From Patescibacteria group bacterium (GTDB lineage Bacteria > Patescibacteriota > Minisyncoccia > UBA6257 > 2-01-FULL-56-20), in NCBI GenBank assembly GCA_024654525.1, contig JANLHI010000030.1:2886-66885 (forward strand): DNA of 64,000 bases. Direction: 5' to 3'. Both the position numbers and the translations under genes were made by a program. Below are positions 1 to 18,069 of the stretch, in pieces (position 1 is the first letter of the stretch; every line of letters begins with the position of its first letter). The notes beneath the pieces were generated by a model. It was not told where the DNA came from. It ran no database searches and saw only the letters and a program-made list of their open reading frames with translations.

Positions 1-479
1 GTAAGTAGGGTGTAAAGAGCAATAAAGATCCATGGCACCCATCGCTCTATTTTAGTGAATGGCCAATAGATCTCTTTATTTTTACCCCTACCCAGCATTT
101 CCCATTCCGTATCGTACAGTGCCAAAGGCAAACGAGCCTCGATCGCGTGAATAACCTGAAACTTACCTCCATTTAAGCCATCATAGGATCGGATTATTCG
201 ATACCATAAATAACACATTGTGATTCCAGCGATGGAAGCTGATATCAGAATTGAGACTATGTCGCCCCCATTCGTCTTAGTAGCCACAAATCCAAGCAGA
301 GCTACGAGAGCTGTGTTTAGCCCCAAGAAGAATTCGTTGGCTTTTTGCCTGCGATCGCTGATTTTTTCCGCCGAGGCTATATAAATTTTATACTGCTCCA
401 GAAGATGCTCGATATACCGGTCGCCGTATTTATCGCTGGCCGATACGAAGAGTATCTTCTGGATATCCTCAGGTTTCAT
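1..479 (-). CDS. 2-TM protein immediately downstream of the TIR-like gene, running off the window start. The start is MKPEDIQK; the two TM helices are FLGLNTALVALLGFVA and IVSILISASIAGITMCYLW. Possible SLATT-like or ThsA-like effector partner.
   Basis: Manual translation of the minus strand. The ATG sits directly after the TIR gene stop (TAGATG junction), there are two hydrophobic helices, and the ORF continues past position 1. Confidence 0.35.
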   Translation of the reverse strand, partial: MKPEDIQKILFVSASDKYGDRYIEHLLEQYKIYIASAEKISDRRQKANEFFLGLNTALVALLGFVATKTNGGDIVSILISASIAGITMCYLWYRIIRSYDGLNGGKFQVIHAIEARLPLALYDTEWEMLGRGKNKEIYWPFTKIERWVPWIFIALYTLL

Positions 480-854
480 CTAAAGTGAGTTTATGAAGTT
501 TGTTATGTTAGGCCATGTCCAGTGGTAAATCCGCCTACCACTCAATTCTGAAGGAATACGTTTAACTCCCTCGTCATGAATGTAAACCGGGAAAACGGGG
601 ATGCTTTCTTCGTACGCACATTTTATTTCCCAAAGAGCCCCATCGGCATTAATAGTGTTATCGCTCACAAAAGCCACAACACCATCGCAACTCTTGATTC
701 GTTCGCGACACTGAGTTTTCCAAGACGACGACCAAGGCTCTTTCACTGACATGTCCACAAAATCGAACGGGGTATTTTCCTGTTTCGACTGATACGTCAA
801 ATTATCTCGAGCAAACTTATCTTCCATTGCGAAACTGACAAAAATTCTTTTCAT
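480..854 (-). CDS. TIR-like domain protein (DUF1863 / Thoeris ThsB-like)
   Basis: 124 aa. N-terminal KRIFVSFAMEDKF and the W...SxWK...I...DGVVAFVSxNTxxSxWxxWEI pattern are typical of bacterial TIR-like DUF1863 proteins. Confidence 0.5.
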   Translation of the reverse strand: MKRIFVSFAMEDKFARDNLTYQSKQENTPFDFVDMSVKEPWSSSWKTQCRERIKSCDGVVAFVSDNTINADGALWEIKCAYEESIPVFPVYIHDEGVKRIPSELSGRRIYHWTWPNITNFINSL

Positions 855-1228
855 TTTGTTTTATTTGATTTTATTAATTAGGCATACACGGATCACTCTT
901 CCTTCCCCGGAAGCAATCCGTGTATGCTTGCGAATACAAGCACTATTTCTTAGTGTCTCCGTATCCTGGCTTGGGAACACGTTCGACTACGTGCGTGTTG
1001 GGTTGCCGCCGGGCCTCTTCCACGGTTGTGAATTCGCCGGTTTTTGCATCCCGTCCACGAGTGGTCGTCTTTGATTCTTTACTCATTTATCTCGTATTAT
1101 TGGTGCTGATTGGGCGTCAGTATGATAGAGTGTAAGTGTAAGCTTTCCTCGTTTCACAACTAGCTTCTCGAAGAATCGACGCGGGGCCGGAGCGGGAAGG
1201 AAACCCCTCTCCGATTTAAACGCCCAGA

Positions 1229-1319: not shown

Positions 1320-1943
1320 TTAATAAAGATTTTTGGGAAGCGTTGCGACTACTACGCCTTGGACAACAAAATCCTCGGTTAAAATTATTGGCCTGTGTTC
1401 TTTGTCAGTGGAATTCGGTTTTAAGACAATGGATCCATTTTCACGATCATGATAAAGAAGCTTGATTGTCGCGTCGTTATTTATGAGAGCGACTATTCTT
1501 TCACCGTCTTCGGCAGTTGGTTGCTGTTTAATGAGAACCAAATCCCCGTCATTTATGCCGGATTTATTCATGGAGGTACCGACTGCGCGCAAAAGAAAAT
1601 AAGAATGGCCTGGCTTGGCGAAGCGGGTCGAGACATCAATTATGGCTTCGACATCCTGTTCGGCGAGCGAAGGCGATCCACAAGCCACCGATCCAACAAG
1701 CGGTACCTCCATAGTCCGATCTTCCATGGGTGATTCCATGTTTTGGGCGAGCTTAATAACGCCATTCGAATACGAAACCAGACCACGTTTCTTGAGGCGT
1801 TCCAGCATAAGCTGGACGGAGCGTGGCGAGGCATAACCAACAACCCTGCCTATTTCCCGGAGAGAAGGTGTTACGCCCGTGCTTAATACCTTGCCCCGAA
1901 GGAAAGCGTAGCCTTGAAGATCCTTTTTGTTTACTTGGTTCAT
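1320..1943 (-). CDS. lexA: LexA-type repressor (wHTH plus S24 peptidase). It may be the repressor of the adjacent phage-like module rather than the host SOS regulator.
   Basis: N-terminal LexA DNA-binding domain, an A-G cleavage region VACGSP, a GTSMN serine motif and a downstream Lys (IKLL). Confidence 0.85.
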   Translation of the reverse strand: MNQVNKKDLQGYAFLRGKVLSTGVTPSLREIGRVVGYASPRSVQLMLERLKKRGLVSYSNGVIKLAQNMESPMEDRTMEVPLVGSVACGSPSLAEQDVEAIIDVSTRFAKPGHSYFLLRAVGTSMNKSGINDGDLVLIKQQPTAEDGERIVALINNDATIKLLYHDRENGSIVLKPNSTDKEHRPIILTEDFVVQGVVVATLPKNLY

Positions 1944-1997: not shown

Positions 1998-2636
1998 ATG
2001 GATACACCGCTTACCAGGCGGACAGTTGAAACCTACCTCCCCGTCTTACGGGCTATTTATGCATCCATTGAGGTTTCCGTTACAACCGCAAGTCGGCTGG
2101 AGAACAGGGACGACCTTTATTTCTTTTATCTGGGAAAAGAATTCGGAACCTCCAATATTTTACACACCACATATCTACTCAAACTTTGGCTGAAGGACTC
2201 TCGCGACTTCGAGATGAGGCCGATGATGTTCCACAAAAAGAATAGGAAAGCGAAGTGGGTCGACCTTATCAAATTGCTTGATGAAAAAATTACGGAATAT
2301 CACGACGGCGTCCCTATCATTGAGGTTGGTATCCATCGCAACGGGCGTGTCGTTCGAGAGTTTATGGGACAAAAACTTATTCATGACTTTGGAAGCGACG
2401 GGCTCAAAAGAAAAGTTGTATCTTATCTCGCTGGGCGCGGCAGTTTTACGAAAACTCCGGAAATCCAAAAGTATATCGGTTCGAAGAGTACCGAGTCCGC
2501 TGTGAAGGCAATTCGTTCTATCAACTCAACTCTTCGTTTGCGTCTCCAGTTTCCGAAGAAGCAAAAATTCATCGATAGTAAGCGGGGTTCCGGTTACGGC
2601 ATTAACCCGATTTACAACGTGGTTTTGTTGGATTAG
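1998..2636 (+). CDS. Hypothetical protein transcribed divergently from lexA
   Basis: 212-aa ORF with no recognisable motifs. It shares the divergent promoter region with lexA. Confidence 0.45.
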   Translation: MDTPLTRRTVETYLPVLRAIYASIEVSVTTASRLENRDDLYFFYLGKEFGTSNILHTTYLLKLWLKDSRDFEMRPMMFHKKNRKAKWVDLIKLLDEKITEYHDGVPIIEVGIHRNGRVVREFMGQKLIHDFGSDGLKRKVVSYLAGRGSFTKTPEIQKYIGSKSTESAVKAIRSINSTLRLRLQFPKKQKFIDSKRGSGYGINPIYNVVLLD

Positions 2637-2784: not shown

Positions 2785-4062
2785 ATGCCTGCACAAAAAC
2801 TTTCATGGAGGAACGAAGTGCGTCGGGTTTCGGATCTCGTGCCGAATCCGAAAAACCCTCGTTCCATCTCGCCGAAGCAGATGGAGGACTTGAAGCGCAG
2901 TCTCAAGAAATTCGGCCTGGTCGAATTGCCCGCGATAAACACTAACAACAGAATCTTGGCCGGACACCAACGCCTCCTCGCGCTCCAACTCCTCGGACGC
3001 GGTGACGAAAAGATTCCCGTTCGCGTGCCAACGCGCCCGCTCACAAAGAAGGAATACGATCAATATCTTCTGACCAGTAACCGCGTCCACGGTGAATGGG
3101 ATTATCAAATGCTCGCCGAGCAATTCGATGTCGAAATGCTCCTCGCCTCAGGCTTTGACGACGGGGATCTCTCGGTTATTTTCGACGATCTTCAAGTGGA
3201 AGACGACGAATTCGATCCGGAAAAAGAATTAAAGAAGATAAAGAAAACGGATGTGAAGCCGGGAAGTCTCTACCAACTGGGACCGCACCGTATTCTTTGT
3301 GGCGACAGCACCAATTCCGAAGTCGTCAAGAAACTCATGGGCGGCAAGAGTGCGGCGGTCATTCTCCAAGATCCCCCGTACAACATCGGTCTCAGCTATA
3401 ACAAAGGCATCGGCGGGAAAGGTAATTACGGCGGTGAAACGAACGACGCGAAGTCAGACGAAGAATATGAATCATTTCTCCGCAAAGCCCTTGCGAATGG
3501 CGTCGACGCCTGCGAGAAGGACGCACACGTGTTCACATACCACGATCCCCGCTACACCTGGCTTTTGCAAAAACTTTACAAAGAGCTGGGCATCGCGTAC
3601 AAGCGGACGTGTTTGTGGGTAAAAAATAATTCTACGCCCACACCTAACGTCGCCTTCAATCGCCAATATGAACCGGCGCTCTACGGCGTTATCGGGAAAC
3701 CGTATCTTTCGGAGCGATCATTCAATTTTTCCGAGATCTTAAACCGCGATGTTGGGATCGGTAATCGCACCATAGACGACATTTACGATTTGATAGACAT
3801 CTGGCTCGTAAAGCGGCTCGGCGGTTCGGAGTATGAGCATCCCACTGAAAAGCCGCCCATGCTGCACGAGCGGCCGCTGCGGCGTTGCACTAAGCCGGGA
3901 GATATCGTGCTTGATCTGTTCTCTGGTTCATCCAGTATTATGGTCGCTTGCCACGGGTTGAAGCGCATCGCGTATATGGTCGAACGCGAGCCGATTTTCG
4001 TTCAATTATCGCTAAACAGATATGCCAAACTTACGGGAGAAAAAGCAAAAAGGATCGCCTAA
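2785..4062 (+). CDS. ParB-like nuclease domain fused to an N6-adenine/N4-cytosine DNA methyltransferase (phage-type)
   Basis: N-terminal VPNPKNPR...ILAGHQRLLA matches a ParB N-terminal domain. The DPPY motif (ILQDPPYN) and C-terminal HPTEKP...DLFSGSSS (motif I) indicate a beta-class amino-MTase. Confidence 0.8.
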   Translation: MPAQKLSWRNEVRRVSDLVPNPKNPRSISPKQMEDLKRSLKKFGLVELPAINTNNRILAGHQRLLALQLLGRGDEKIPVRVPTRPLTKKEYDQYLLTSNRVHGEWDYQMLAEQFDVEMLLASGFDDGDLSVIFDDLQVEDDEFDPEKELKKIKKTDVKPGSLYQLGPHRILCGDSTNSEVVKKLMGGKSAAVILQDPPYNIGLSYNKGIGGKGNYGGETNDAKSDEEYESFLRKALANGVDACEKDAHVFTYHDPRYTWLLQKLYKELGIAYKRTCLWVKNNSTPTPNVAFNRQYEPALYGVIGKPYLSERSFNFSEILNRDVGIGNRTIDDIYDLIDIWLVKRLGGSEYEHPTEKPPMLHERPLRRCTKPGDIVLDLFSGSSSIMVACHGLKRIAYMVEREPIFVQLSLNRYAKLTGEKAKRIA

Positions 4063-4795
4063 GCCCGGCACGATCTGGCAGCTTGGCGATCATCGCTTGG
4101 CTTACGGCGACGCTCGCGACAAAGAGTTACTGAAGCGACTTATCGGCGTGGAGAAAATAAACCTTGTCTGTTGCGACGTTCCATACGGAGTGGATGTCGC
4201 AGCGTCAAAGCGCAACTTCCGCACGCTTTCTAAAGACAGAGATATTGCTAACGACCAATTGCAGTCGGACGACGAGTATCGGAAGTTTACAAGCGACTGG
4301 CTGCAGGCGGTATCGTCGTTTCTTGCCGCCAAAAACTCCGCCTACATATTTAATGCCGATAAGATGGTTTGGTCTTTGCGGGACGGCATGATTGATTCCG
4401 GTTTCAAGGTGGCCCAACTTCTTATTTGGATCAAATCTCAAGCAGTGGTAGGACGACTTGATTATTCTCCGCAGCACGAGCTTATCCTCTACGGCTGGCG
4501 CGGAACGCATAAATACCGCCGCTCAAAAGACAAAAGCGTCTTGTTCTATCCGCGGCCGTCGAAAAGCAAACTACATCCGACGACCAAACCCATTGGTCTT
4601 ATCCGGAGGCTTATTCTTAACTCCTCGGAAATCGGTGGTGCGGTCTACGACGGGTTTTTAGGCAGCGGTACTCTGCTTTTGGCTTGTGAGGAAACGCGCC
4701 GCAAATGCTTCGCAGTTGAGATTGATCCCGAGTATTGTCTCACGTCAATTTTCCAATGGGAGCGCCTGACCGGTAAAAAAGCAGAGCAGATATGA
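4022..4795 (+). CDS. DNA methyltransferase (N6A/N4C, beta-class)
   Basis: DVPY motif (CCDVPYGV) and HPTTKP...YDGFLGSGT motif I. It overlaps the upstream MTase by ~40 nt. Confidence 0.8.
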   Translation: MPNLREKKQKGSPKPGTIWQLGDHRLAYGDARDKELLKRLIGVEKINLVCCDVPYGVDVAASKRNFRTLSKDRDIANDQLQSDDEYRKFTSDWLQAVSSFLAAKNSAYIFNADKMVWSLRDGMIDSGFKVAQLLIWIKSQAVVGRLDYSPQHELILYGWRGTHKYRRSKDKSVLFYPRPSKSKLHPTTKPIGLIRRLILNSSEIGGAVYDGFLGSGTLLLACEETRRKCFAVEIDPEYCLTSIFQWERLTGKKAEQI

Positions 4796-5235
4796 AAAAG
4801 ACCGATCACATAAAAGAGCTGCTTATAGATCAGCTGCGCAGGACGCCAATCGTTGAGGCCGCTTGTCAGAAAGCGAACATTTCCCGCATGACGTTTTATC
4901 GTTGGAAAAATGAGGACAAAGAATTCGCAAAAAAGGTCGACGAGGCGCTTTCCGACGGGCAGCTTCTTGTGAACGATCTCGCCGAAAGCCAGCTTATTGG
5001 CGCGGTCAAAGATCGGAATTTTCAAGCGATTGCCTATTGGCTCAAACACCACCATCCGAGCTACAAAACGCGTATTGAAATCGAGGGAGCGCTCAACACC
5101 GTGCACGAACTTTCACCAGAACAAGAAAAACTTATGCGAAAAGCGTTTGAACTGGCAGGCATTAACATTGATGACTACGAAGAAGCACGAGATACGAGTC
5201 AAAAAAGTAACCAACTAAAACAAATCAATGAGTAA
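4792..5235 (+). CDS. Phage terminase small subunit-like HTH protein
   Basis: HTH ISRMTFYRWKNEDKEF, an ATGA overlap with the upstream gene, and a position directly upstream of TerL. Confidence 0.5.
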   Translation: MKKTDHIKELLIDQLRRTPIVEAACQKANISRMTFYRWKNEDKEFAKKVDEALSDGQLLVNDLAESQLIGAVKDRNFQAIAYWLKHHHPSYKTRIEIEGALNTVHELSPEQEKLMRKAFELAGINIDDYEEARDTSQKSNQLKQINE

Positions 5236-6712
5236 CAATTCTGACGACGATAAAAACGTTTTTGAAGCCATCGCAAAAGACCGCGTTCTTCGGCAGCAGC
5301 TTGGTCAGCGCAGCCATCACATGTTTTTCGTAATGTACTTTCCGCACTACATCAAATACCCCGTGGCGGAATTTCACAAAGATATTTTTCGCATCACCGA
5401 AGATCAGTCGACGAATCTTGCCTGCATCGTGGCGTTCAGGGGAAGCGGCAAGAGCACGCTAGTAACTTTTTCATATTCTCTCTGGTCGATCCTTGGCATC
5501 CAGCAAAAAAAGTTTGTCCTTATTATCTGTCAGACCCAAGCTCAGGCCAGACAGCACATGGCCAATCTCAAATTTGAGCTTGAGCAGAATACCCTCCTCA
5601 AAAGCGACATGGGACCGTTCCGCGAGGAAGCCGGCGACGGCCAGTGGGCCATATCGTCTCTTGTGTTCAAAAACACTGGAGCTCGGATAATGATCGCTTC
5701 AATAGATCAAAGTATTCGAGGTATTCGCCACCACGAATACCGCCCCGACCTTATCATTCTGGACGACATTGAGGACAGTAATTCCGTGAAAACCTTCGAG
5801 GGCCGCATCAAAATATCCGATTGGTTTTCCCGAGAGGTGGTGCCGCTCGGGGATATCGGAACTCGCATCATTCTCGTTGGCAACCTTCTTCACGAAGCCG
5901 CGCTTACGATAAGTCTCCGAAACAAAATTGACCGCAAAGAAATACGCGGCACCTACCGTTGGTTTCCGCTCATCGACGAAAGCGGAGCATGCCTGTGGCC
6001 AGGTAAATTTGATACGTCGGATAAAATTGAGGCTCTTCGTCAAAGCGTTGGCAACGAAATAGCCTGGCAGCAAGAGTATCTTCTCAATATTGTCTCTGAC
6101 AGCTCTCGTGTCATATTCCCGGAGTGGATTCGCTACTACGACGAGCTGCCCAGCGAAACATTGCGGAGTATCCACGTGGGCGTTGATCTGGCCATATCCC
6201 AGCGGGAAGGAGCCGATTTCACGGCAATGGTTGGCTTACGCCGCTATGGATACGGCAACACCATGCGTCTCTACGTGATTCCGAACCCGTTTAACAAGCG
6301 GGTGCCGTTTCCCGAAGTAGTGGCTACCATAAAAACTCTTGATCGAACGTTCAAAGCCAAAGGAGAGCATGCCAAATTCATTGTTGAGTCGAATGGTTTT
6401 CAAGAAATCTATGTGCACGCGGTAAGCGACAGCGGTTGCGACGTTAAGGGCGTAAAGCATACTGGGGACAAGCGTTCGCGACTGGCACTCACGAGCCAGC
6501 TTATTCAAAACGGTACGATTGTATTTCCGCGCCGTGGAGCGGAAGAACTTATCGCGCAACTCACGGGGTTTGGGGTAGAAAACCATGATGATTTGGCGGA
6601 TGGGTATAGCACCGCTGTACTCGATGTTATGAATGACATAGAAAACGACCGGGGTTGGGAGGCATGGATGCAGTGGGTGAAAAGCAATGGCGGAAGTTGT
6701 CAGATTAGGTAG
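5228..6712 (+). CDS. Phage terminase large subunit
   Basis: Walker A AFRGSGKST, Walker B LIILDDIED, and C-terminal RNaseH-like nuclease acidic motifs (VGVDLA, HDDLADG). Confidence 0.8.
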   Translation: MSNNSDDDKNVFEAIAKDRVLRQQLGQRSHHMFFVMYFPHYIKYPVAEFHKDIFRITEDQSTNLACIVAFRGSGKSTLVTFSYSLWSILGIQQKKFVLIICQTQAQARQHMANLKFELEQNTLLKSDMGPFREEAGDGQWAISSLVFKNTGARIMIASIDQSIRGIRHHEYRPDLIILDDIEDSNSVKTFEGRIKISDWFSREVVPLGDIGTRIILVGNLLHEAALTISLRNKIDRKEIRGTYRWFPLIDESGACLWPGKFDTSDKIEALRQSVGNEIAWQQEYLLNIVSDSSRVIFPEWIRYYDELPSETLRSIHVGVDLAISQREGADFTAMVGLRRYGYGNTMRLYVIPNPFNKRVPFPEVVATIKTLDRTFKAKGEHAKFIVESNGFQEIYVHAVSDSGCDVKGVKHTGDKRSRLALTSQLIQNGTIVFPRRGAEELIAQLTGFGVENHDDLADGYSTAVLDVMNDIENDRGWEAWMQWVKSNGGSCQIR

Positions 6713-6827: not shown

Positions 6828-7322
6828 TCATGCCGCCTTATTAAGCTTTTTCTTTCTAAGAAGAATATATGCAATGCCTAAAACTAAAGAGATGCCGAGA
6901 GGCGGAAGTGCGTACATTATAATACCGACAATGTTATATAAGATCGAGGCACTCGTATTTAGTGCATCAAATAACCACGGCACGATAAACTGATAGGAAA
7001 TATACATTAAAAACGCCCAAACCACTGCCTTGATAAAGTTATAAAGACCCCACAAACCCATCCCTTTTACCAAGATGTCATGCAATACCTTGTAGAAGCG
7101 AGCCATATACAGTAGGAATCCGAGCGTAAAAAACGTAAAAGCGCTATAGAAAGCTCGAACAAAGATGCTCGGCTGCTCAAACGGCTCGATCTGTTGCCAT
7201 TCAAAATGTATTCCCAAAACGAAGCGCCACAATAAAAACACTAACGCTAAAATGATATATGTCGATGCGGATCTAACAATATCATTTACATACTTCAATA
7301 TCGTTGCTTTATGCCACTTCAT
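6828..7322 (-). CDS. 4-TM membrane protein co-transcribed downstream of the ABC-ATPase
   Basis: 164 aa with four hydrophobic helices. Its start lies 5 nt after the ATPase stop. Confidence 0.45.
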   Translation of the reverse strand: MKWHKATILKYVNDIVRSASTYIILALVFLLWRFVLGIHFEWQQIEPFEQPSIFVRAFYSAFTFFTLGFLLYMARFYKVLHDILVKGMGLWGLYNFIKAVVWAFLMYISYQFIVPWLFDALNTSASILYNIVGIIMYALPPLGISLVLGIAYILLRKKKLNKAA

Positions 7323-7327
7323 TTTTA

Positions 7328-8791
7328 TTATTTACCGGCCTTTCTCTTGCCGTACTTTAATTCTCGAAGTGTACTTATAGATTTGACAAGATCTTCTGAC
7401 AAGAATTTACTATTCTTTGAATTTTCTGGATGATGGATAGAGTTACGAATGTATTTTGGCAGAGAAACGTTCTCTGTCTTGCTTAATTTATCATTGAACC
7501 ACTTTTCCGTTGTTGGAAGTCCGTTTAATTTACTTGGGTCAATATCTTCGAGATAGCCATACAGTTCGTTGTGGTAATCGTTTGTGGGTATACCGAATAC
7601 TTCGTAGTTCACTTCCGAATAGGAGCTATCCTTACCTTTGATTTGCTCAAGCTTTGTTTTCTTGTTGCCTTGTTTTACAACTCGGAAGCATCGGTCTATA
7701 TGGTCTTTGTCAATCATATAATTTGAGTGCGTTGCAAAAATGACAACGTTGTTCTCCTTATTCTTTGAGATCTTTATAAGTTCATTCCTCAAGTATTCCT
7801 GCGCTTGTGGGTGTAGGTGGGTTTCCGGCTCATCCAGCAGCAATAACGAATACGATAATTGATCAGTGGAGCTTTCTGCTGAAATTGTAAGAAGAAATGA
7901 TACGAATTGTCTGAATCCATCGCTTCTTTGGTTTGTTGTTTTAGAATCGTATTTTACTCCGACATCCTCAACCAAAAATGATAGCATCATGTTATTGATC
8001 TGAAATTTGATCTTGACCGGATGATTCTCCCACACCTTCTTGATGTGAGCAGTGACCTTATCTCCCAGCTTATCTTGGAGATCACTAACCTCGGCTGGAT
8101 CGGTCAACAGCTTACTTATGGCTGCTGGGATGTTTGCCTCATCAATACCTGCTAATCGAAAACAATTTAGCAGTGGGATTGATGTTTTCTCGGGTGCTGC
8201 AGAAAAAGCATTGAGATCAATTTGATCATTAATAAGGTATTCATTGGTTGATTTCCAAAAAGTGACGTGGTGTGAAATCTTCCAAAAGTAAGTCGGCAAG
8301 GTAGTTTCGAAATAAGTTTGAAGATTAAAATCATCTTGCGTTAGTTCCGGATTCTTCTTTATTGGTTTATCTCCCTCAAGAGTATAGTCGGGAAAAATGT
8401 GCGTCTTAAATTGGATACGATCAAAGTTTTTTCTTGCCGGTGTTGCTGTCGGCTCATAACCCACGCAAACATCTACCTCCTCAATCTGTATCTTTGAAAG
8501 CAGATCTTTTTCAAAGCCCTTTGCCTCAAGCTCCTTCTTCAGATTTTTCTCCTCGCTTACTTCTAGATTGTAGGTTAGTAAGACGCTGATCGGTTTTGAT
8601 TCGTTGAAATAATCTTTAGGAAACAAGACGTCGCCACTATCTACCAAAGAAACAGCTCTCAAAAAACTACTCTTTCCTGATTCATTGATACCAATGAGTG
8701 TGTAGGTTTTACCACCATGAATCTCTTCGACATTAAACGTTTCGTTTTCAATGCTCCTGAAGTTTTCGATTGTTATTTTTCTAATCTTCAT
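7328..8791 (-). CDS. SMC-head/ABC-type ATPase (AAA_15/21-like) with a C-terminal HEPN-like R-x4-H motif. PrrC/RloC-like anticodon-nuclease candidate.
   Basis: N-terminal ITIENFRSI...GINESGKSS (Walker A), LLLLDEPETHLHP (Walker B/D-loop) and ATHS (H-loop). The C-terminal tail contains KYIRNSIHHPEN. The gene is in a type I R-M locus. Confidence 0.55.
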   Translation of the reverse strand: MKIRKITIENFRSIENETFNVEEIHGGKTYTLIGINESGKSSFLRAVSLVDSGDVLFPKDYFNESKPISVLLTYNLEVSEEKNLKKELEAKGFEKDLLSKIQIEEVDVCVGYEPTATPARKNFDRIQFKTHIFPDYTLEGDKPIKKNPELTQDDFNLQTYFETTLPTYFWKISHHVTFWKSTNEYLINDQIDLNAFSAAPEKTSIPLLNCFRLAGIDEANIPAAISKLLTDPAEVSDLQDKLGDKVTAHIKKVWENHPVKIKFQINNMMLSFLVEDVGVKYDSKTTNQRSDGFRQFVSFLLTISAESSTDQLSYSLLLLDEPETHLHPQAQEYLRNELIKISKNKENNVVIFATHSNYMIDKDHIDRCFRVVKQGNKKTKLEQIKGKDSSYSEVNYEVFGIPTNDYHNELYGYLEDIDPSKLNGLPTTEKWFNDKLSKTENVSLPKYIRNSIHHPENSKNSKFLSEDLVKSISTLRELKYGKRKAGK

Positions 8792-8802
8792 ATATTTAGC
8801 GC

Positions 8803-11800
8803 TTATGCGTACACGTTTACCTTCGTGTCGACGTAGTTATCATACACATGAAAATATACCTTCTGCGTTCGATCTTCGCAGTCGGGATCGGTATATGTCG
8901 GCTCCGGTAGCTCGTCGTAAAGTATCTTTGCAATAGTGACTTTGACATCAGCGCGCGTTTCTTCTTTCTTCTTCCAGTCCAGCACAAGCTTCTCTTGTTT
9001 TAGTCGAGCCAATAGCTCTTTAGCTACCTTTTTGACCTGATCAATCTCGCTCGGGTTTAAATTCTCTTTACGGAGAATGTCGAATACCGCCAGCTCTTCT
9101 TCGGTAAGGTTCTCTGAAACAGCACGGCGATCTTCATCGCTCAATTCCTTTGCAAGCTCTACTAGCTGGTTAAAGAAGGCATCAAGATCATGCGATCCGG
9201 TATTGTATTCGTGTAGGAGCTTATTTAGGCGGTCTAGGAAGTGTTTGCGGAGCTTGTTCTTGCGTACCATCTCTTTGATCTTCTCTTCCAGCTCGGCGCT
9301 CAATGCCTCAGCTTCAATGTTCTGCGTATCAGAATCATCAAAAAACTTCCTCAGTACCTCGAAGTCAATCTTGCTCAAGTCCTTAAGTTTCGGCACATCT
9401 TTGATCACATACTCGCCAGCGCGGATAGAGCGATCAAGTAGGTTTTCAAGATCCTTTTTCACCTGCGACACGTTTGTATCTTCATCGATCACCTCGCGGA
9501 TACGCGATGCAATAACTTTGTATGCCGTCACTTCGTGATAATAATCTTCCGCCTTCGGTTCCGGCAAAACTGCTTTGTAGTATTTGTACGCGTCACCAGC
9601 AAGATCAAGATATCGCTGCTTTGTTTTTTCATTTTGGAGGATGCGGTTTGTGAATACATCCACAAGCCGGATCTTCTCGACATCTTTTGCTTCGAGAAGG
9701 TCGTTGATATCCAGCTCGAGTGTCTTTAGAAATTGCCTTGTCTTTGCGACGGTAGCAAAAAGTATTTCCACCAGCTCATTTTTGTCTTTGATAATCTCAT
9801 CATCTCCGTCTTTTGTAGATGCATAAACTGCGAGTGCTTTTTGTAGGTTACGGAATACCCCGATGTAGTCGACGATCAAGCCATTCGTTTTATTTGGATA
9901 GACACGGTTTGCGCGAGCGATGGTTTGCATCAGCGTGTGATTCTTGAGTGGCTTATCGAGATAAAGCGTTGAAAGGTTCGGTACATCAAAGCCGGTCATC
10001 CACATCGCGCACACAAACACGATCCGCAGATTGCTATCCGGATCCTTAAACTTGGTTTCAAGATCTTCGTTTAGAATACGAGCGCGCAGTGGGCGCATGT
10101 CAATCTCGAATTCTTCCATGTCGGCAATTTCATTTTGGCTTTGGCTTACCACAACCGCCATGTCGATGTTCTCATATTTCTGAACCTGTTCTCTCAACAT
10201 TTCTTTCTCGTGGTCATCCTTTGCTTTGGTAACGGCGATATTCATCTTTGCTAGATGGCGCTGCATCTCTGCCTTCACTTTCGCGTACATGCGAATGGCA
10301 GTTTTCTTGTCGATAGAAACAACCATCGCCTTACCGTCATATCCACGAGCAGTAAAGTGCGTGACGATATCCTCTGCAACTTTATTAAGGCGATCTTCAC
10401 GTGTGATCAGATGATAGAAAGTCGAAAATTCCTGCTCAAGCTTCTCTTCTTCGTCGGTCGAGAGTTCATAGAAGTCCATCACTTTCTCAAGATCCTTTTG
10501 GATCTCCGGATTCTCATTTTCAAGTTTGGGTACTCGGTTTTCGTAGTAAAGAGGCACCGTAGCACCATCTTCTACCGACTGGGCGAAGTTATAGGTCGAC
10601 ACGTAGTCACCGAAGGTTTCTCGGGTCTTTTCTTCGCCCTTAGCCATCAGTGGCGTGCCTGTAAAGCCAATAAATGCGGCTTTGGGCATCGCTATGCGCA
10701 TATTCTGCGCCAAGCGGTCATATTGGGTACGATGCGCCTCATCTACCATCACAATGATGTCGCTGCGCTCTGAAAGCACCGGCGGTTTCTCTTCGGGCTT
10801 CGTACCGAATTTATGGATCAAAGAAAAGATGTGACGATGATCTTCAGTTAAGAGCTGGCGGAGATTGAGAATCGAATCAGCATGTACTTCTTCTTTATAT
10901 ACCGCACCGCAGGCAGAGAATGTTTTGTATATCTGCCTGTCGAGTTCAGTTCTGTCAGTTACGACAATGAAAGTGAAGTTGCCAGTCATCTTTCGTAGCA
11001 CCTTTTGCGAAAGGAAGATCATGGAGTACGACTTGCCGGATCCTTGCGTATGCCAAAAGACACCAAGTCGTCCGTGATTTTTGTCGCGATTCTTGATCTG
11101 ATCAAACGCCTGATTTACTCCGAGTAGCTGGAAGTAACGAGATATAGCTTTTACTCTCTCGCGGAAGGAATCATCAAACAGTGTGAAGTTTTCAATAATA
11201 TCGAGAAGTCGTGAAGGTTCACAAGTTCCTTTAATAACTGTTTCCAAACTCACGCGCCCTTCCTCACTCTCGCTCTTTATCTTTTTCCATTCATTAAAAT
11301 GCTCGTATGCGGAAGTGAGTGTTCCTACTTTAGTTTCGATGCCGTTAGAGAGGATGATAAAACCATTGTGCCAAAAGAGCTGCGGAATAGTGTCTTTATA
11401 ATCACGGATGTTTTCTTGATAGGCATTTCGTAGATTCTTATGTGATGCCTTCAGTTCGATCAATACGAGCGGTAAGCCATTCACGAAACCGATCAGATCG
11501 GGACGGCGCTTGTGAAGCTCTCCGGTGATCCACATTTGGGATACCAGCAAGAAGTCATTATTCGCTGCGTTTTCAAAATCAAAGACGCGGATGTTGATAC
11601 TTTCAAACGCGCCCTGCTCGGTTCGGATCTCTGTTTTGATTCCGTCTTTTATAAGCTTGTAGATGTCATGGTTAGCATTGACCATGCTTGCAGTAGAACG
11701 ATCGCGCGTGAGTTCAGTAATAGCTTGAGCGATTGCTTCCTGTGGCGCATCCGGATTGAGCTTCTCAAGTGCCAGCTTTAAGCGATTAACCAAAACAACC

Positions 11801-11937
11801 TGCCCTTGATTCTCACGCCCCAAAAGAGCATCTCCTTCTTCGGAGTAGGCATTGATAAAATTCTTAACACCCCAAGGCTCCGCAAAAATCTTTACGGCTG
11901 TTTGCTCAATTAAATTGTTTTCAGAAAATTCATTCAT
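8803..11937 (-). CDS. hsdR: Type I restriction enzyme R subunit
   Basis: 1044 aa with a DEAH box (MVDEAHRTQ) and SF2 helicase motifs. It overlaps hsdS by 4 nt. Confidence 0.9.
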   Translation of the reverse strand: MNEFSENNLIEQTAVKIFAEPWGVKNFINAYSEEGDALLGRENQGQVVLVNRLKLALEKLNPDAPQEAIAQAITELTRDRSTASMVNANHDIYKLIKDGIKTEIRTEQGAFESINIRVFDFENAANNDFLLVSQMWITGELHKRRPDLIGFVNGLPLVLIELKASHKNLRNAYQENIRDYKDTIPQLFWHNGFIILSNGIETKVGTLTSAYEHFNEWKKIKSESEEGRVSLETVIKGTCEPSRLLDIIENFTLFDDSFRERVKAISRYFQLLGVNQAFDQIKNRDKNHGRLGVFWHTQGSGKSYSMIFLSQKVLRKMTGNFTFIVVTDRTELDRQIYKTFSACGAVYKEEVHADSILNLRQLLTEDHRHIFSLIHKFGTKPEEKPPVLSERSDIIVMVDEAHRTQYDRLAQNMRIAMPKAAFIGFTGTPLMAKGEEKTRETFGDYVSTYNFAQSVEDGATVPLYYENRVPKLENENPEIQKDLEKVMDFYELSTDEEEKLEQEFSTFYHLITREDRLNKVAEDIVTHFTARGYDGKAMVVSIDKKTAIRMYAKVKAEMQRHLAKMNIAVTKAKDDHEKEMLREQVQKYENIDMAVVVSQSQNEIADMEEFEIDMRPLRARILNEDLETKFKDPDSNLRIVFVCAMWMTGFDVPNLSTLYLDKPLKNHTLMQTIARANRVYPNKTNGLIVDYIGVFRNLQKALAVYASTKDGDDEIIKDKNELVEILFATVAKTRQFLKTLELDINDLLEAKDVEKIRLVDVFTNRILQNEKTKQRYLDLAGDAYKYYKAVLPEPKAEDYYHEVTAYKVIASRIREVIDEDTNVSQVKKDLENLLDRSIRAGEYVIKDVPKLKDLSKIDFEVLRKFFDDSDTQNIEAEALSAELEEKIKEMVRKNKLRKHFLDRLNKLLHEYNTGSHDLDAFFNQLVELAKELSDEDRRAVSENLTEEELAVFDILRKENLNPSEIDQVKKVAKELLARLKQEKLVLDWKKKEETRADVKVTIAKILYDELPEPTYTDPDCEDRTQKVYFHVYDNYVDTKVNVYA

Positions 11938-13247
11938 ATATTTATATTGCCGGTAACAAGCTTAGACAGTAAAGCGTCTTTGGAGTTTGATAATGAATCC
12001 ATTTGCTTATTTAAATTCAGCCCTAAATCTATAAGTGCGCTGACTAAATTCTCATATTCAGTTACTAATGAGATAGGAGGTAAAACCATTTTTAAATTCA
12101 GTGTCTGCACGGGACTTAAATTTTGTTGTGCCACACCATTTGAAAGCAATTCGAGTTTTTTCTTAAAAGATTCCGATCGAAAAAGTGAATATACAAAACT
12201 CTTATACACCGCATCTTTTGGAACGATCTTTCCTACGCGCTGGTTGAGCAGGAGATTTTCACCGTAAACAATGCAAACGCGTCCAACATTTCCGGTTAAT
12301 GACAGCAAAATATCACCATCGTTGAGTCGGCAATGATCCGGCATTTTTGGGGGAATTTCGGCAATGTAGTTAAAATCGGAAATAAATTTACCATCATGTA
12401 TATTTTTTATTGTTATGATTCTGTATAGCCCTGTTGTAACATAATCTTTCCCCTTAAAAGCATGGCCAGATTTAATATCCAAAATTGATTCTAAATTACA
12501 AATTTTCCATCCTTCTGGGATCTTCCCAAATTCGGTACCGCTATCAACCATTTTAATTTTCTCGTGATTGGGAAAGCGATAATTTACGAACCATTCAGTG
12601 TAAATAACCTGCATCATCAGCTCCAATATCTTGATCCGGCGAGTGTTATTTTCGATAAGATCATCATAAGGAGATAGATGATTAACGATACTCTCTTGAA
12701 CCTGAATCGGTGGAAGTGACAATTCGATATTCAAAAGATCCGACACTTTTACGCTTGGTTGAGCGGCGCCTCGATCCAATTCGGTTATCTTGTTTTTATT
12801 GAAAAATAGAAAATAATATAAAAACTCGTTTAAGCAACCCTTGCCGCATCTTATGCCTATTGTATTTTGAATTATCACACTCTTTTTCTTAGGTGCTAGA
12901 GCAACATTCCCAAAACCATTACCAACAAGTGTTACAAGAACATCCTTCTCTTTGAGGTATTTTCTTATAAAATCGTGAAATGTTTTTTCATCAATAAATC
13001 TTCTTGCGTTTGCTAAAGCCACGGATCTCGTACCAGTTATCAGGAAATTATCGATAACGGGAATTCCTTCATTATAAAAAGCTTGTGGATTTTTCCCTCT
13101 GTTATCAACAATGTAATCTACCAAAGCACTTAGCTTTGTATTATTCCAATTATTTTTTGCAGCAGTGATGGTCATATCAGAATAACTTTCCAAAATTCTT
13201 GCTAATTTTATTCTCAAGACCATGCGCTTCTTCTGTGAGCTTCTCAA
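11934..13247 (-). CDS. hsdS: Type I R-M specificity subunit. The real start is probably Met25 (MTITAAK, ~13175).
   Basis: Two target-recognition-domain repeats with conserved central and C-terminal coiled regions. It lies between hsdM and hsdR. Confidence 0.85.
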   Translation of the reverse strand: MRSSQKKRMVLRIKLARILESYSDMTITAAKNNWNNTKLSALVDYIVDNRGKNPQAFYNEGIPVIDNFLITGTRSVALANARRFIDEKTFHDFIRKYLKEKDVLVTLVGNGFGNVALAPKKKSVIIQNTIGIRCGKGCLNEFLYYFLFFNKNKITELDRGAAQPSVKVSDLLNIELSLPPIQVQESIVNHLSPYDDLIENNTRRIKILELMMQVIYTEWFVNYRFPNHEKIKMVDSGTEFGKIPEGWKICNLESILDIKSGHAFKGKDYVTTGLYRIITIKNIHDGKFISDFNYIAEIPPKMPDHCRLNDGDILLSLTGNVGRVCIVYGENLLLNQRVGKIVPKDAVYKSFVYSLFRSESFKKKLELLSNGVAQQNLSPVQTLNLKMVLPPISLVTEYENLVSALIDLGLNLNKQMDSLSNSKDALLSKLVTGNINI

Positions 13248-14703
13248 GCTCTGTATTTATCCCTCGTACAGTCGTTTCAAAATCGACGTCGCTTACGTTC
13301 TCATTATCTGCTGCGCCAACATATCGACCAGAATTTAAGGAATAACCAGCCGCGCGCACTTCTTCAAGGGCGGCTACCTTGCAAAGCCCCTTAATATCTG
13401 TGTATTTCTTTATACCTTCTCCGCGATAGCTACGCACGATATCGGCTATTTGCTGTATCTGTTCCTCCGTCCAGTCGCGATGCGCGCGATCAATTTGATG
13501 GTAGATATTTCGCGCATCAATGAAAAGAATTTTATCCTTGCGATCAGTTTTCTTTTTACCTTTGTCTAGGAACCACAAGGTAACTGGCAAGGTGACGTTG
13601 TAGAACATGTTTGATCCTACGGCGACCATTACATCAACCACGCCATCATCAATCATTTTTGCGCGAATATCCTTTTCGCTGTGTCCGGCATCGCTTGCAG
13701 AGTTAGCCATAACAAAACCAGCACGACCAGTATTTTTTAATGCACTCAAGAAAATCTGAATCCAAAGAAAGTTTCCATTATCAGTGCGAGGCAAGCCATG
13801 CGGAAAGCGAGGATCATCTTTAATGCGCTCCTTGTCGATACCATTCACGTTGAAAGGAGGATTCGCCATAGCGAAGTCAAACTTCCCAAGTGAACGATGT
13901 AGATCTTCGTAGTAGGTATTGCCTTGTTTGATATCACCGGATAGACCGTGAATCGCAAGGTTCATCTTTGCAATGCGAACCGTTTGGTCAGTTTTCTCTT
14001 GACCGTAGATAGATACTTCACGCGCCGCTTTTAACTTCTTTCCTTTCTCAAAATGACGCTTGATGAACTCAACAGATTGCACAAACATACCACCGGATCC
14101 GCAGGCAGGATCGTAAATATATCCCTTGAACGGCTCAAGAATTTCGACGATCAGCTTAACAATAGAAGTCGGTGTGAAGAACTCACCACCGCCTGATCCG
14201 TCTGCGATGGCGAACTTACCCAAGAAGTATTCATAAATAAGACCGAAGGCATCACCTTCAATCGTGTCCGGAATCTGATTGAAATTTTTGAGAAGTGAGA
14301 TGATAGCTGAATTTTCCAGCAAGTTGTAATTCTTCGGTAGGATACCAGCAAGCTCTTTGTTTTCTCCTTCAATAGTTTTCATCGCATCATTTACTGCCTT
14401 ACCCATGTTTGTACCTTCAGGAAGGGTTATGAGATGTGAGTAGTGAGCGCCTTCAGGAATATACAAAACGCCACGAGAGTGATAATCCTCGGGCGTGATA
14501 GGACGCTGGCGCTTGGATGTTGCTTTTGCACGCTCTGCCTCAAGATCCTTTTTAGCGGCGATAAATTTAACGTCGGCAAACTTCAAGAAGATAAGCCCCA
14601 AAACCGGTTCGGCAAACTCATTCAAGCGAAGCGCAGAATTAGCGCGGAGATGATCCGCCGCTTCCCACAATCTACTCTCGAGTTGTTTGGTATCTGATGA
14701 CAT
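13177..14703 (-). CDS. hsdM: Type I R-M N6-adenine methyltransferase subunit
   Basis: N-terminal HsdM_N domain (LWEAADHLR), an NPPF motif (ANPPFNV), and the SAM-binding motif GKFAIADGSGGGEFFTP. Confidence 0.9.
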   Translation of the reverse strand: MSSDTKQLESRLWEAADHLRANSALRLNEFAEPVLGLIFLKFADVKFIAAKKDLEAERAKATSKRQRPITPEDYHSRGVLYIPEGAHYSHLITLPEGTNMGKAVNDAMKTIEGENKELAGILPKNYNLLENSAIISLLKNFNQIPDTIEGDAFGLIYEYFLGKFAIADGSGGGEFFTPTSIVKLIVEILEPFKGYIYDPACGSGGMFVQSVEFIKRHFEKGKKLKAAREVSIYGQEKTDQTVRIAKMNLAIHGLSGDIKQGNTYYEDLHRSLGKFDFAMANPPFNVNGIDKERIKDDPRFPHGLPRTDNGNFLWIQIFLSALKNTGRAGFVMANSASDAGHSEKDIRAKMIDDGVVDVMVAVGSNMFYNVTLPVTLWFLDKGKKKTDRKDKILFIDARNIYHQIDRAHRDWTEEQIQQIADIVRSYRGEGIKKYTDIKGLCKVAALEEVRAAGYSLNSGRYVGAADNENVSDVDFETTVRGINTELEKLTEEAHGLENKISKNFGKLF

Positions 14704-14706
14704 AAG

Positions 14707-14952
14707 TTATTTTTGGCTTTGTTTAAGAAATTTTAATATGTCTTCTTTCTTATAGCGTCTATCCCGCCGACTTCCAAAACGCATTGCTTTTAATATGCCA
14801 CGGTTGTCCCACTTGCGGAGAGTATTAGGATGACAATTCAGAATCTCGCAGGCCTGTTGAAGCGTGAGAATATCGGGCATCTGTTTTATTTTAGGGCGCT
14901 GTTTTTTCATAAAAGCATAACTTAACACAAGTTTACACGACAATTTAAGCAT
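14707..14952 (-). CDS. Excisionase/MerR-type HTH DNA-binding protein. The start is probably the internal Met (MKKQRPK, ~14910).
   Basis: The segment LTLQQACEILNCHPNTLRKWDNRGIL is a Xis-family HTH. It is adjacent to the serine recombinase. Confidence 0.5.
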   Translation of the reverse strand: MLKLSCKLVLSYAFMKKQRPKIKQMPDILTLQQACEILNCHPNTLRKWDNRGILKAMRFGSRRDRRYKKEDILKFLKQSQK

Positions 14953-15042
14953 TGTAAAGAGCTTTTAAGGGGTTTTGGTTGCCTACGGGTTATCAACTAC
15001 CCCGTCTGGACTCCCTAGCGGGTTTGCGTCATCTCTTAGGGT

Positions 15043-16380
15043 ATGACCAACCAAACTACAGGGCCGGTGGGAGCTGTGGCCCAAACACAAATCCAGCTTC
15101 CCATAAAGGTCAAATACGTGCTCTATGCGAGGAAAAGCACGGAAAGCGAGGAACAGCAGATCCTTTCCATAGACAGCCAGATCAAGGAGATGCTCCAGAT
15201 GGCCGAACGTGACCATCTGGAGGTGGTAGAGATCAAGAAAGAGTCGCACTCGGCAAAGGAAGCGGGGCAACGTCCAGTGTTCAATGAGATCGTCGATGAA
15301 ATCAAAAGTGGCAAATTCAACGGAATACTTACATGGGCGGCAGACCGTATATCGAGAAACGCCGGAGACCTCGGAAGAATCGTGGACCTCATGGACAGCG
15401 GAAAGTTGATTGAGATACGCACCTACGGGCAGAAGTTCACCAACAGCCCGAACGAGAAGTTCCTCCTTATGATATTGGGCTCGCAGGCTAAGCTCGAGAA
15501 CGACAATAAGGTGGTGAATGTGAAGCGCGGGTTAAGGGCGCGATGCGAGATGGGGCTATGGCCATGCACGGCACCGACGGGATACCTGAACAGCACGATT
15601 AAGGAGAAAAGCTGCCATGTAGAAATTGATCCCCACAGGGCTCCCATGATTAAGAAGATGTTTGAGAAAGTGGCCTACGAGAACATGAGCGGGCGACGGC
15701 TTCACGCATGGCTCAAGGACGAGGCTAAGTTCCGGGTAAGGAGTGGCAAGCCGCTCACGATCAGCAATATATACATCACTCTGCGAAATACTTTCTACTA
15801 CGGCTCATTCGAATATCCGAGAGGCGGTGGGCAGTGGTATGCCGGGAAGCATATGCCCATCATCACCAAGGAACTCTTCGACAAGGTGCAGGAGAAAATG
15901 GCTAACTATGCGGTGCGCGGGGAAACAAAGGAATTCGCCTTCACGAAACTCATGACCTGCGGACTATGCGGATCTGGTATCACGGCCGATGAGAAATTCA
16001 AGAAACAACAAAATGGCAATGTACACAGGTACGTCTACTACGGTTGCTGCCGGTTCCAGGATAAGAACTGCAAATCGGGATATATGCGAGAAGAAGATCT
16101 GATCGAGCAGCTCGCAAAGCTGATGGATAAAATTGACCTCGATGAGATCGGCATGAAGGAGCGGATTAAAATTGAAATCGAACGGCACAAGAAATTCCAG
16201 TCGGGACTTTTGGGGATAAAGGAAAAGACGATCAAAGTCGGCGACATTGACGTGCGAAATTACGCGAAGTACGTGTTGCGAGACGGAACGATACTTGAGA
16301 AGCGAGAGTTGTTATCTTGCCTGCGTAGTAAGGTGACGATGGCGGAGAGAGAAGTGAAGATTGCTCAAGCTAAGACTTAA
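15043..16380 (+). CDS. Serine recombinase (resolvase N-terminal domain plus recombinase and zinc-ribbon domains)
   Basis: Catalytic region YARKSTESEEQQ...SIDSQ, ADRISRN, and a C-terminal CGLCGS...YYGCCRFQDKNC zinc ribbon. Confidence 0.8.
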   Translation: MTNQTTGPVGAVAQTQIQLPIKVKYVLYARKSTESEEQQILSIDSQIKEMLQMAERDHLEVVEIKKESHSAKEAGQRPVFNEIVDEIKSGKFNGILTWAADRISRNAGDLGRIVDLMDSGKLIEIRTYGQKFTNSPNEKFLLMILGSQAKLENDNKVVNVKRGLRARCEMGLWPCTAPTGYLNSTIKEKSCHVEIDPHRAPMIKKMFEKVAYENMSGRRLHAWLKDEAKFRVRSGKPLTISNIYITLRNTFYYGSFEYPRGGGQWYAGKHMPIITKELFDKVQEKMANYAVRGETKEFAFTKLMTCGLCGSGITADEKFKKQQNGNVHRYVYYGCCRFQDKNCKSGYMREEDLIEQLAKLMDKIDLDEIGMKERIKIEIERHKKFQSGLLGIKEKTIKVGDIDVRNYAKYVLRDGTILEKRELLSCLRSKVTMAEREVKIAQAKT

Positions 16381-17912: not shown

Positions 17913-17997
17913 GCAAAAACCAGTCAATAGATTGATCGGTTATGGAAACACGGGAGACCGGGCTTTCCAAGCCCGCTCGGTCGGTCTCACATGCCTG

Positions 17998-18069
17998 TGC
18001 CCTCGAGAGGAATCGAACCTCTATCTTCACGTTAGGAGTGTGAAGCTCTATCCATTGAGCTACGAGGGC
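17998..18069 (-). tRNA. tRNA-Arg(CCT)
   Basis: Cloverleaf folded by hand: acceptor GCCCTCG/CGAGGGC, anticodon loop CTCCTAA, T-arm AGAGG-TTCGATT-CCTCT. Its 3' end faces the island. Confidence 0.75.

Follow-up and report, generated by a model that had tools for sequence, protein, structure and literature searches.

Thoeris systems pair a TIR-domain protein with an effector encoded next to it, and the known range of effectors has widened considerably. Yirmiya et al. (2025) distinguish 29 putative Thoeris configurations, of which types V-XI were verified and the others left as predictions (doi:10.64898/2025.12.03.692087). One of the predicted effector classes, labelled '3TM', appears in Table S1 and Fig. 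1C of that preprint. In type IV Thoeris, a short TIR-only gene is followed by the gene for a caspase-like protease, and the signal between the two proteins is N7-cyclic ADP-ribose (N7-cADPR) (doi:10.1101/2024.10.24.620036). Here we describe a two-gene locus at the very start of a 64,000-nucleotide stretch of DNA (the window) from a Patescibacteria group bacterium (GenBank assembly GCA_024654525.1, contig JANLHI010000030.1, positions 2,886 to 66,885 of the forward strand), in which a small TIR gene is followed directly by a gene for a three-transmembrane protein of the Pfam family 8xMP. Our reading is that the pair is a Thoeris-type abortive-infection module carried on a mobile/defense island of this Patescibacteria (candidate phyla radiation, CPR) genome, and we put the probability of this reading at roughly 0.7.

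The locus shares features with several described types. Its TIR protein belongs to the same clade as those of type IV, and the layout, a short TIR-only gene and then the effector gene, is also the same. The type IV effector, however, is a soluble protease, whereas the one in the window is a membrane protein with three transmembrane (TM) segments. No caspase (Peptidase_C14) gene is present in the annotated part of the window (position 1 to about 22.7 kb), where the gene after the TIR gene is the 8xMP gene. Type V Thoeris (TIR with ThsF/DUF2270, PF10028; signal 3'cADPR) uses an analogous small three-TM effector, and an AlphaFold3 model of ThsF is a circular homo-oligomer with pockets between protomers (doi:10.64898/2025.12.03.692087). 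The likeness to 8xMP is architectural only: the two belong to different Pfam families, and comparison of hidden Markov model (HMM) with sequence, the level at which they were compared, gave no PF10028 match at E <= 1. ThsH of type VII Thoeris, the SLATT proteins of CBASS and ThsA of type II Thoeris resemble the proposed arrangement in being nucleotide-activated membrane effectors that adjoin a TIR gene and combine an N-terminal TM hairpin with a cytoplasmic helical part. In contrast to SLATT and ThsA proteins, 8xMP has a third TM segment at its C-terminal end, and it matches none of the PADLOC models, including those for CBASS TM effectors and ThsA.

The TIR gene

The thsB-like TIR gene (480..854, minus strand) encodes a protein of 124 amino acids (aa) that consists of a TIR domain only. 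The open reading frame (ORF) and its translation are as quoted in an initial annotation of the window, made from the letters of the sequence, which had assigned the protein to the ThsB/DUF1863-type TIR-like group. Profile searches bear this assignment out. The protein matches Pfam PF08937 ThsB_TIR (E 1.4e-7, 32.3 bits against a cut-off of 21.2) and PF13676 TIR_2 (E 1.6e-6, above the gathering threshold), and several PADLOC ThsB models also match, the best with E 1.8e-5. An AlphaFold2 model built from 28 homologues (pLDDT 84, pTM 0.80) shows the alternating beta/alpha order of a flavodoxin-like fold. When the model is used to search the Protein Data Bank (PDB) with Foldseek, the best matches are TIR proteins, led by a TIR from Bacillus cereus (8fz9; E 1.7e-6, TM-score 0.77), with EcThsB2, MyD88, the SPARTA TIR-APAZ protein and SARM1 among the further matches. 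The structure prediction that the initial annotation had suggested as a check thus came out in favor of a TIR domain.

The other check suggested there, for the catalytic glutamate, gives a similar answer. W75 and E76, in the motif LWEIKCA, are invariant in an alignment of the 28 TIR homologues. By BLASTP, the window protein is 40% identical (E 1e-33) to the type IV Thoeris TIR domain (PsTIR) of Pseudomonas sp. 1-7, and E76 is aligned with the glutamate of the WEIQCA motif in that protein. The substitution E79Q in the Pseudomonas sp. 1-7 TIR abolishes defense (doi:10.1101/2024.10.24.620036), and the aligned glutamate would be this E79 if the published domain sequence is offset by four residues. 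By alignment, then, E76 is the catalytic-position glutamate of the window TIR. We predict that the 124-aa protein acts both as the sensor of infection and as the synthase of an NAD+-derived signal. The protein is 100% identical to one of the collected homologues (P0121, locus tag NUV53_03040), from a metagenome-assembled genome (MAG) deposited at NCBI as 'Patescibacteria group bacterium'.

The partner gene

The second gene (1..479, minus strand) begins with the ATG at 479-477 and leaves the window at its start. Its frame is open for 159 codons, from the ATG to window base 3. The translated fragment matches the Pfam family PF24838, whose full name is Octameric membrane protein family (8xMP), with E 5.4e-43 and 146.5 bits against a cut-off of 30, and the match covers profile positions 1-130 of 136. 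A search of a large protein database returned 394 relatives, the best of them 70-92% identical and nearly all 165-180 aa long, and every listed homologue carries PF24838 as a precomputed annotation. Because the homologues are about 176 aa long, some 17 C-terminal residues are missing from the fragment, which is thus about 90% complete (159 of about 176 codons); these last codons were taken from a 92%-identical, full-length homologue of 176 aa (P0001). The initial annotation had considered the effector beyond identification on account of the truncation, which underestimated how much of the gene the window holds. It had also named, as a result that would tell against a defense pair, a partner that ends within about 20 residues of the edge and has no conserved domain; the protein does end within about 17, but its domain is strongly conserved, and the idea is not refuted.

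Hydropathy places TM segments at residues 47-68 and 71-93 of the fragment, after a polar N-terminal helix, in agreement with the helix and two TM segments read by hand in the initial annotation. There is, in addition, a third TM segment, which lies at about 146-166 in P0001 and is cut by the edge of the window. From its start to the window edge, the partner thus comprises an N-terminal helix, the TM1-TM2 hairpin, about 50 residues of conserved soluble sequence and the first part of TM3. Lysine and arginine residues number 8 in the N-terminal 49 residues, 8 in residues 97-148 and 0 in the loop at 69-76, and by the positive-inside rule both conserved soluble segments would therefore be cytoplasmic. 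An AlphaFold2 monomer model of P0001 (pLDDT 74) contains helices only: those at 21-68 and 71-116 form a long hairpin, and a TM helix lies at the C-terminal end. The invariant residues of the family are Q29, Y30, R43, N48, F50, F51, N55, W92, K106, H111, E114, P118, E125, W126, Y138 and E145. The conserved aromatic and charged residues in the predicted cytoplasmic segments would be compatible with a pocket, though they do not prove one.

The family is a large one, since a profile search of 1.84 billion cluster representatives (50% identity) yielded 3,418 relatives at E <= 1e-3, of which 2,059 reach E <= 1e-10. At E <= 1, the only Pfam matches of the partner are 8xMP and a sub-threshold match to DUF1129; SLATT, Macro and DUF2270 (PF10028) are all missing from the result, and there are zero matches in PADLOC, NCBIfam and PHROGs. 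The initial annotation had suggested either a SLATT protein or a ThsA-like protein with TM segments and a Macro domain, and neither suggestion holds. For SLATT there is no match in Pfam at E <= 1 and none in PADLOC, in comparisons of HMM with sequence. For ThsA there is no Macro match, and the homologues, at 165-180 aa, end just past TM3; a Macro domain is excluded because a protein of about 176 aa is too short to contain one. A literature search on 8xMP, PF24838 and octameric membrane protein returned nothing relevant.

Some members of the family are longer. Proteins of about 264 aa (P0071, P0093, P0080 and P0107; loci L011, L012, L014, L017 and L019) have a C-terminal extension of about 90 residues with more hydrophobic helices, and in P0285 and P0351 a multi-TM stretch of about 200 residues is added at the N-terminus. 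Most long 8xMP 'fusions', for instance to a transposase or to NMT1, look like gene-calling artifacts or TM extensions.

Linkage of TIR and 8xMP genes

In the window, the two genes meet at a TAGATG junction (477..482), where the minus strand reads ...CTTTAGATGAAA. The TAG of the TIR gene (482-480) is followed by the ATG of the 8xMP gene (479-477) with no gap, as the initial annotation had read it; the direct abutment of stop and start codon indicates translational coupling of the two genes.

The same arrangement was sought in loci gathered by exact-protein look-up and by scanning a single genome of each species, which gave 54 loci. All ORFs of the gathered loci were searched with 8xMP and TIR HMMs. 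We call group A the loci in which 8xMP shares at least 50% identity with P0001; they include L001-L028, L061, L062 and L067 and come mostly from Patescibacteria, with a few from Bacteroidota, Gemmatimonadota and proteobacterial MAGs. A TIR ORF lies directly upstream of 8xMP in all group A loci that have upstream DNA, and the distance from the TIR stop to the 8xMP start is between -17 and +14 nt in every one of the 26 with a readable junction. This pairing is far beyond chance. The upstream slot is filled by three TIR clades: the 124-aa 'FVSFAxED...DMSVK...WEIKCA' clade to which the window protein belongs, a 135-aa 'FISHSW...WINKEI' clade and an 'SFDFDHD' clade. Among the scanned ORFs upstream of 8xMP, 19 of 47 match Pfam ThsB_TIR. 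In five loci, a single 8xMP gene follows two different TIR genes.

The pairing also occurs on plasmids. A tblastn search of PLSDB found 36 plasmid records with 8xMP, and an annotated TIR gene is directly upstream in 7 of the 11 that were inspected. Plasmid-borne pairs were seen in Haematospirillum jordaniae, Synechococcus elongatus IITB6 (pIITB6_1), Polaromonas sp. H8N (pH8NP2, where the pair is flanked by a type I restriction subunit and a PIN protein), Novosphingobium ES2-1 and the haloarchaea Haladaptatus, Halorubrum and Halobacterium. Finally, a metagenomic cluster representative of 299 aa (P0341) combines an N-terminal ThsB-type TIR domain (7-82, by Pfam) with a C-terminal 8xMP domain (158-293). 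This is possibly a natural TIR-8xMP fusion, and the sole credible one, with a lost stop codon or an assembly error as the alternative.

Exchange of effectors and the '3TM' class

Close relatives of the window TIR differ in the gene that follows them. The TIR P0179, 65% identical to the window protein, is followed by 8xMP. After the TIRs P0213 and P0211, each 60% identical to the window protein, comes a gene for a caspase-like protein (Peptidase_C14), as in type IV Thoeris. In one locus (L011, 6236-8792) a type IV pair (TIR and Peptidase_C14) stands in tandem with a second TIR gene and a long (263-aa) 8xMP gene. Because TIRs that are 60% identical to the window protein pair with the caspase-like effector of type IV, 8xMP can be said to occupy the effector slot. 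Proven effectors hold this position elsewhere, and the modular exchange at it is our strongest argument for 8xMP as the receiver of a signal made by the TIR protein.

The pair can further be connected with the predicted '3TM' class. Neither 8xMP nor PF24838 is named in the text, or in the supplements consulted, of the preprint that defines this class (doi:10.64898/2025.12.03.692087). However, the TIR domain that its Table S1 gives for the '3TM' row ga0209542_10000011137 is contained, without a single difference, in the TIR protein encoded directly before the 8xMP protein P0018 (loci L002-L009), and P0018 is 79% identical to the window partner fragment over 159 residues. The TIRs of other '3TM' rows share 82-94% identity with TIRs that precede 8xMP in the gathered loci. 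Since these '3TM' TIRs sit directly upstream of 8xMP, the class, which has at least 100 rows in the table, is at least partly the 8xMP family.

The '3TM' configuration resembles the window pair in its two-gene order, its small three-TM partner and its effector family, and differs in the TIR clade: all '3TM' rows compared belong to the 'FISHSW...WINKEI' clade (clusters 2734565194 and 2556961318), whereas the window protein belongs to the 'WEIKCA' clade. In Table S1, the window's clade corresponds to cluster 2635319349, labelled 'Caspase - Type IV' (doi:10.64898/2025.12.03.692087), and the 135-aa clade corresponds to clusters partnered with caspase, CMP hydrolase, SLATT or '3TM'.

Proposed mechanism and points against it

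Among the marks of Thoeris systems in the broad sense are a TIR protein with a catalytic glutamate and an adjoining, co-oriented, conserved effector gene, and the pair has both of these. It is a real and probably functional Thoeris-like pair. The initial annotation had reached the same class and the same coupling, on which domains, fold, catalytic glutamate, synteny and effector exchange now agree; it was the effector families named there that proved wrong.

The mechanism that we propose starts with phage infection, which would be sensed by the TIR protein. TIR-only ThsB proteins are reported to sense phage directly (doi:10.64898/2025.12.03.692087). Glu76 would then convert NAD+ to an ADP-ribose-derived signaling nucleotide, which may be N7-cADPR or a close isomer, because the closest TIR relatives with a characterized partner are those of type IV Thoeris. 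The 8xMP protein, co-translated with the TIR protein, is predicted to form a ring oligomer within the membrane (by the name given in Pfam, an octamer) and would bind the signal at its cytoplasmic face, where the conserved N-terminal helix and the segment between TM2 and TM3 would lie. Once bound, it would open or disrupt the membrane, presumably as an oligomeric pore, and phage replication would stop with the death or growth arrest of the cell. A more far-reaching version of this proposal is that 8xMP is a novel nucleotide-gated, ring-forming three-TM effector that responds to a TIR signal (possibly N7-cADPR) without a known ligand-binding domain, and that it defines a further Thoeris type, carried across Bacteria and Archaea by mobile elements. 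We regard this version as tentative, with the odds somewhat against it.

Several observations weigh against the reading as a Thoeris-type module. No SLOG, Macro, SAVED, CARF or other recognizable nucleotide-binding domain is found in 8xMP with Pfam or PADLOC, and no informative relative of 8xMP was found among solved structures. The octameric state is a supposition whose sole basis is the name of the Pfam family, and the possible assignment of N7-cADPR is an analogy drawn at 40% TIR identity. The '3TM' configuration lies outside the 30 operons that were cloned, so that its pairing is itself a prediction (doi:10.64898/2025.12.03.692087). PADLOC also fails to recognize the partner as a defense protein, with PADLOC-DB v2 holding no model for it. 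In addition, an annotated TIR gene does not adjoin 8xMP in 4 of the 11 inspected plasmid records, and there is a second, more distant group of 8xMP genes (group B), 31 in number and 41-48% identical, in Paceibacteria and Nomurabacteria (L029-L060), near which an HMM spanning all three TIR clades finds no TIR within 8 kb. The neighbors of these genes are housekeeping genes, including those for RmuC, Mur ligases, ATP synthase epsilon and pyruvate kinase.

Given group B and the TIR-less plasmid records, the 8xMP family is not obligatorily coupled to TIR, and the idea that every 8xMP is TIR-linked is ruled out by the 31 distant loci. Group B proteins keep the invariant residues of the family, and a LexA-like gene lies about 1-6 kb from 8xMP in nine of the loci. 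The TIR-less members may be activated in trans, act as their own sensors or serve some purpose other than immunity. On one of the four plasmids, pRL22b6 of Rhizobium leguminosarum (L066, 1373-5480), a 1,215-aa protein annotated as NB-ARC ends 1 nt before a 152-aa 8xMP; the Pfam matches shown for this STAND protein are WD40 repeats. Thus, 8xMP may also serve as an effector of STAND-type sensors.

Alternative explanations

TIR domains also kill directly, by depleting NAD+, in CBASS, Pycsar, SPARTA and Avs systems. The roles in the pair could accordingly be reversed, with 8xMP as a membrane sensor or anchor that responds to DNA injection or to perturbation of the envelope or membrane by phage and the TIR protein as the NAD+-depleting killer. 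The catalytic glutamate required for NADase activity is in place, the 124-aa TIR protein has no separate sensor domain, the nucleotide-binding domains known from other effectors are missing from 8xMP, and on the Rhizobium plasmid it is the NB-ARC/WD40 STAND protein, a typical sensor, that takes the TIR's place upstream of 8xMP. That last layout, however, is equally compatible with 8xMP as the effector, and TIR-only ThsB proteins are reported to sense phage directly. The TIRs that are 60% identical to the window protein are signal producers feeding a caspase-like effector, in whose slot 8xMP stands, and the use of several alternative TIRs with a single 8xMP fits a layout of many sensors and one effector. 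We consider the reversal of roles unlikely.

The genomic setting of the pair raises a different question, namely whether 8xMP might be a holin-like toxin that is restrained by, or co-regulated with, the TIR protein and the LexA-type repressor, in an addiction module resembling a toxin-antitoxin (TA) system that ensures maintenance of the element or times lysis. The pair is always on plasmids or on integrative islands rich in TA modules, a CI/LexA-type repressor recurs upstream, terminase genes adjoin the pair in the window, and the tight translational coupling is typical of TA pairs. Against this, the invariant catalytic glutamate and the TIR fold favor enzymatic signaling, these TIR clades also have proven Thoeris effectors as partners, and orphan 8xMP genes are tolerated with no cognate neighbor, unlike a constitutive toxin; such a module seems to us distinctly improbable. 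It is highly improbable, in our estimate, that the pair has no immune function at all and comprises a nucleoside 2-deoxyribosyltransferase-like or NAD-metabolizing enzyme and a small membrane channel for nucleoside or NAD salvage, a role that the reduced metabolism of CPR cells would make plausible. The group B genes among housekeeping genes of CPR genomes would suit such a role, the TIR protein has a weak Pfam match to Nuc_deoxyrib_tr (E 0.0016, below the cut-off), a 2-deoxyribosyltransferase is at rank 10 in the Foldseek search, and some JGI records give this name to homologues. The TIR models nevertheless score above the transferase model and exceed their cut-offs, TIRs head the list of structural matches, the pair is found on plasmids and defense islands of unrelated phyla and archaea, and 8xMP interchanges with a caspase-like effector. 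Overall, these alternatives are less consistent with effector swapping and with the multi-TIR layout than the Thoeris reading is.

Genomic context

The TIR-8xMP pair sits on an integrative mobile/defense island, in line with the LexA-type repressor and phage/restriction-modification (R-M) island that the initial annotation had noted beside it: an S24 repressor, methylases, terminase subunits and a type I R-M system are all present. Closest to the pair, about 28 nt upstream of the TIR start, is a perfect 12-bp inverted repeat (882..927, minus strand; GCATACACGGAT / ATCCGTGTATGC) with a 22-nt loop, found in a repeat search. At the equivalent spot in L001 (1260-1299) the stem is 16 bp long; the CACGGAT/ATCCGTG core is common to both stems, and flanking stem positions differ on both arms. 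The repeat in the window is not a canonical terminator, because no T-run follows it; it may be an RNA stem-loop, that is, a regulatory hairpin, or an operator. The scan for promoters and terminators gave no convincing promoter for the TIR gene.

A 47-aa ORF (943..1086, minus strand; sequence MSKESKTTTRGRDAKTGEFTTVEEARRQPNTHVVERVPKPGYGDTKK) lies directly before the TIR gene. It has counterparts at the same position in L001 (phmmer E 1e-28) and L008 (E 1e-21), and the nucleotide differences among the three copies are scattered and preserve the reading frame. The ORF matches nothing in Pfam, NCBIfam or PHROG. Most of the other TIR-8xMP loci lack it, and it may have an accessory or regulatory role in the closest relatives only.

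The repressor gene (1320..1943, minus strand) encodes a LexA/CI-type protein with a winged-helix LexA DNA-binding domain and an S24 self-cleaving peptidase (Pfam Peptidase_S24 E 6.7e-24, LexA_DNA_bind E 7.5e-10; PHROG transcriptional repressor/UmuD-like families). It is preceded by a sigma-70-like promoter (1978-1951, minus strand, 11 of 12 matches). A hairpin with a T/A-run at about 1233-1258, after the repressor gene, was noticed by reading the sequence and was not called by the promoter/terminator scan. LexA-type genes also lie directly upstream of the TIR gene or genes in L001 (where the match is to Pfam Peptidase_S24), L011, L014, L015, L018, L020, L022 and L025, and in the Azambacteria loci L002-L009 LexA is fused to an N6/N4 DNA methylase (4063-5406). 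The recurrence of this neighbor could mean SOS- or induction-linked control of the defense operon, or shared carriage on temperate elements.

Divergent from the repressor, at the position where a Cro protein or antirepressor would be expected, is a 212-aa ORF (1998-2636, plus strand) with no match in Pfam, NCBIfam, PADLOC or PHROG; L020 has a weak homologue (E 7e-10) in the corresponding place. The following segment (2785-6712, plus strand) encodes a fusion of a ParB N-terminal domain with a DNA methylase, a second methylase that overlaps it by 41 nt, and the small and large subunits of a terminase. Capsid and tail genes are missing after the terminase genes, since the next genes are minus-strand defense genes; the segment may be what is left of a phage, or a packaging module like that of a satellite. 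The defense/mobility block beyond it (6828-16380) includes a 164-aa membrane protein and an AAA_15 ATPase that resembles those of OLD, Gabija and PARIS (best PADLOC matches Old, AriA and GajA), a complete type I R-M system (8803-14703, with hsdR at 8803-11937, hsdS at 11934-13247 and hsdM at 13177-14703) and a large serine recombinase (15043-16380). A tRNA-Arg gene (17997-18069) is a possible boundary of the island.

Comparable neighbors recur across the loci of the pair, including R-M systems, AAA_15/OLD-like ATPases, Mrr-STAND, DpnI, zeta toxin, PIN proteins, TA modules, serine recombinases and terminase. The Azambacteria locus L002 is organized like the island in the window, with a serine recombinase, a rolling-circle Rep, BsaWI, the LexA-methylase, the TIR-8xMP pair, Mrr-STAND, DpnI and zeta toxin.

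On the scale of the whole window (1-64000), cumulative GC skew has its minimum at about 12-14 kb and rises steadily from about 20 kb. The listed ORFs from about 20 kb up to 30 kb are almost all on the plus strand, and the island at 1-16 kb interrupts this strongly skewed region.

Implications

The pair is no conceptual surprise, since a TIR protein with a membrane effector is an established theme, and the window adds a member to a kind that had been predicted computationally, the '3TM' Thoeris. What it does provide is a link between an anonymous Pfam family, 8xMP, and the preprint label '3TM', which had previously been unconnected. The module occurs in Patescibacteria and on haloarchaeal plasmids, and in CPR/Patescibacteria 8xMP is unusually well conserved (70-92% identity). 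The versions from cultured organisms, such as those on Polaromonas pH8NP2, Synechococcus elongatus pIITB6_1 and the Haematospirillum plasmid, are easier to test than the CPR gene. If 8xMP is indeed a nucleotide-gated effector of the novel kind considered above, the orphan 8xMP proteins of Paceibacteria would be either effectors activated in trans or the housekeeping ancestor of an immune effector. If the pair works as proposed, a distinct and large family of membrane effectors would be added to TIR immune signaling.

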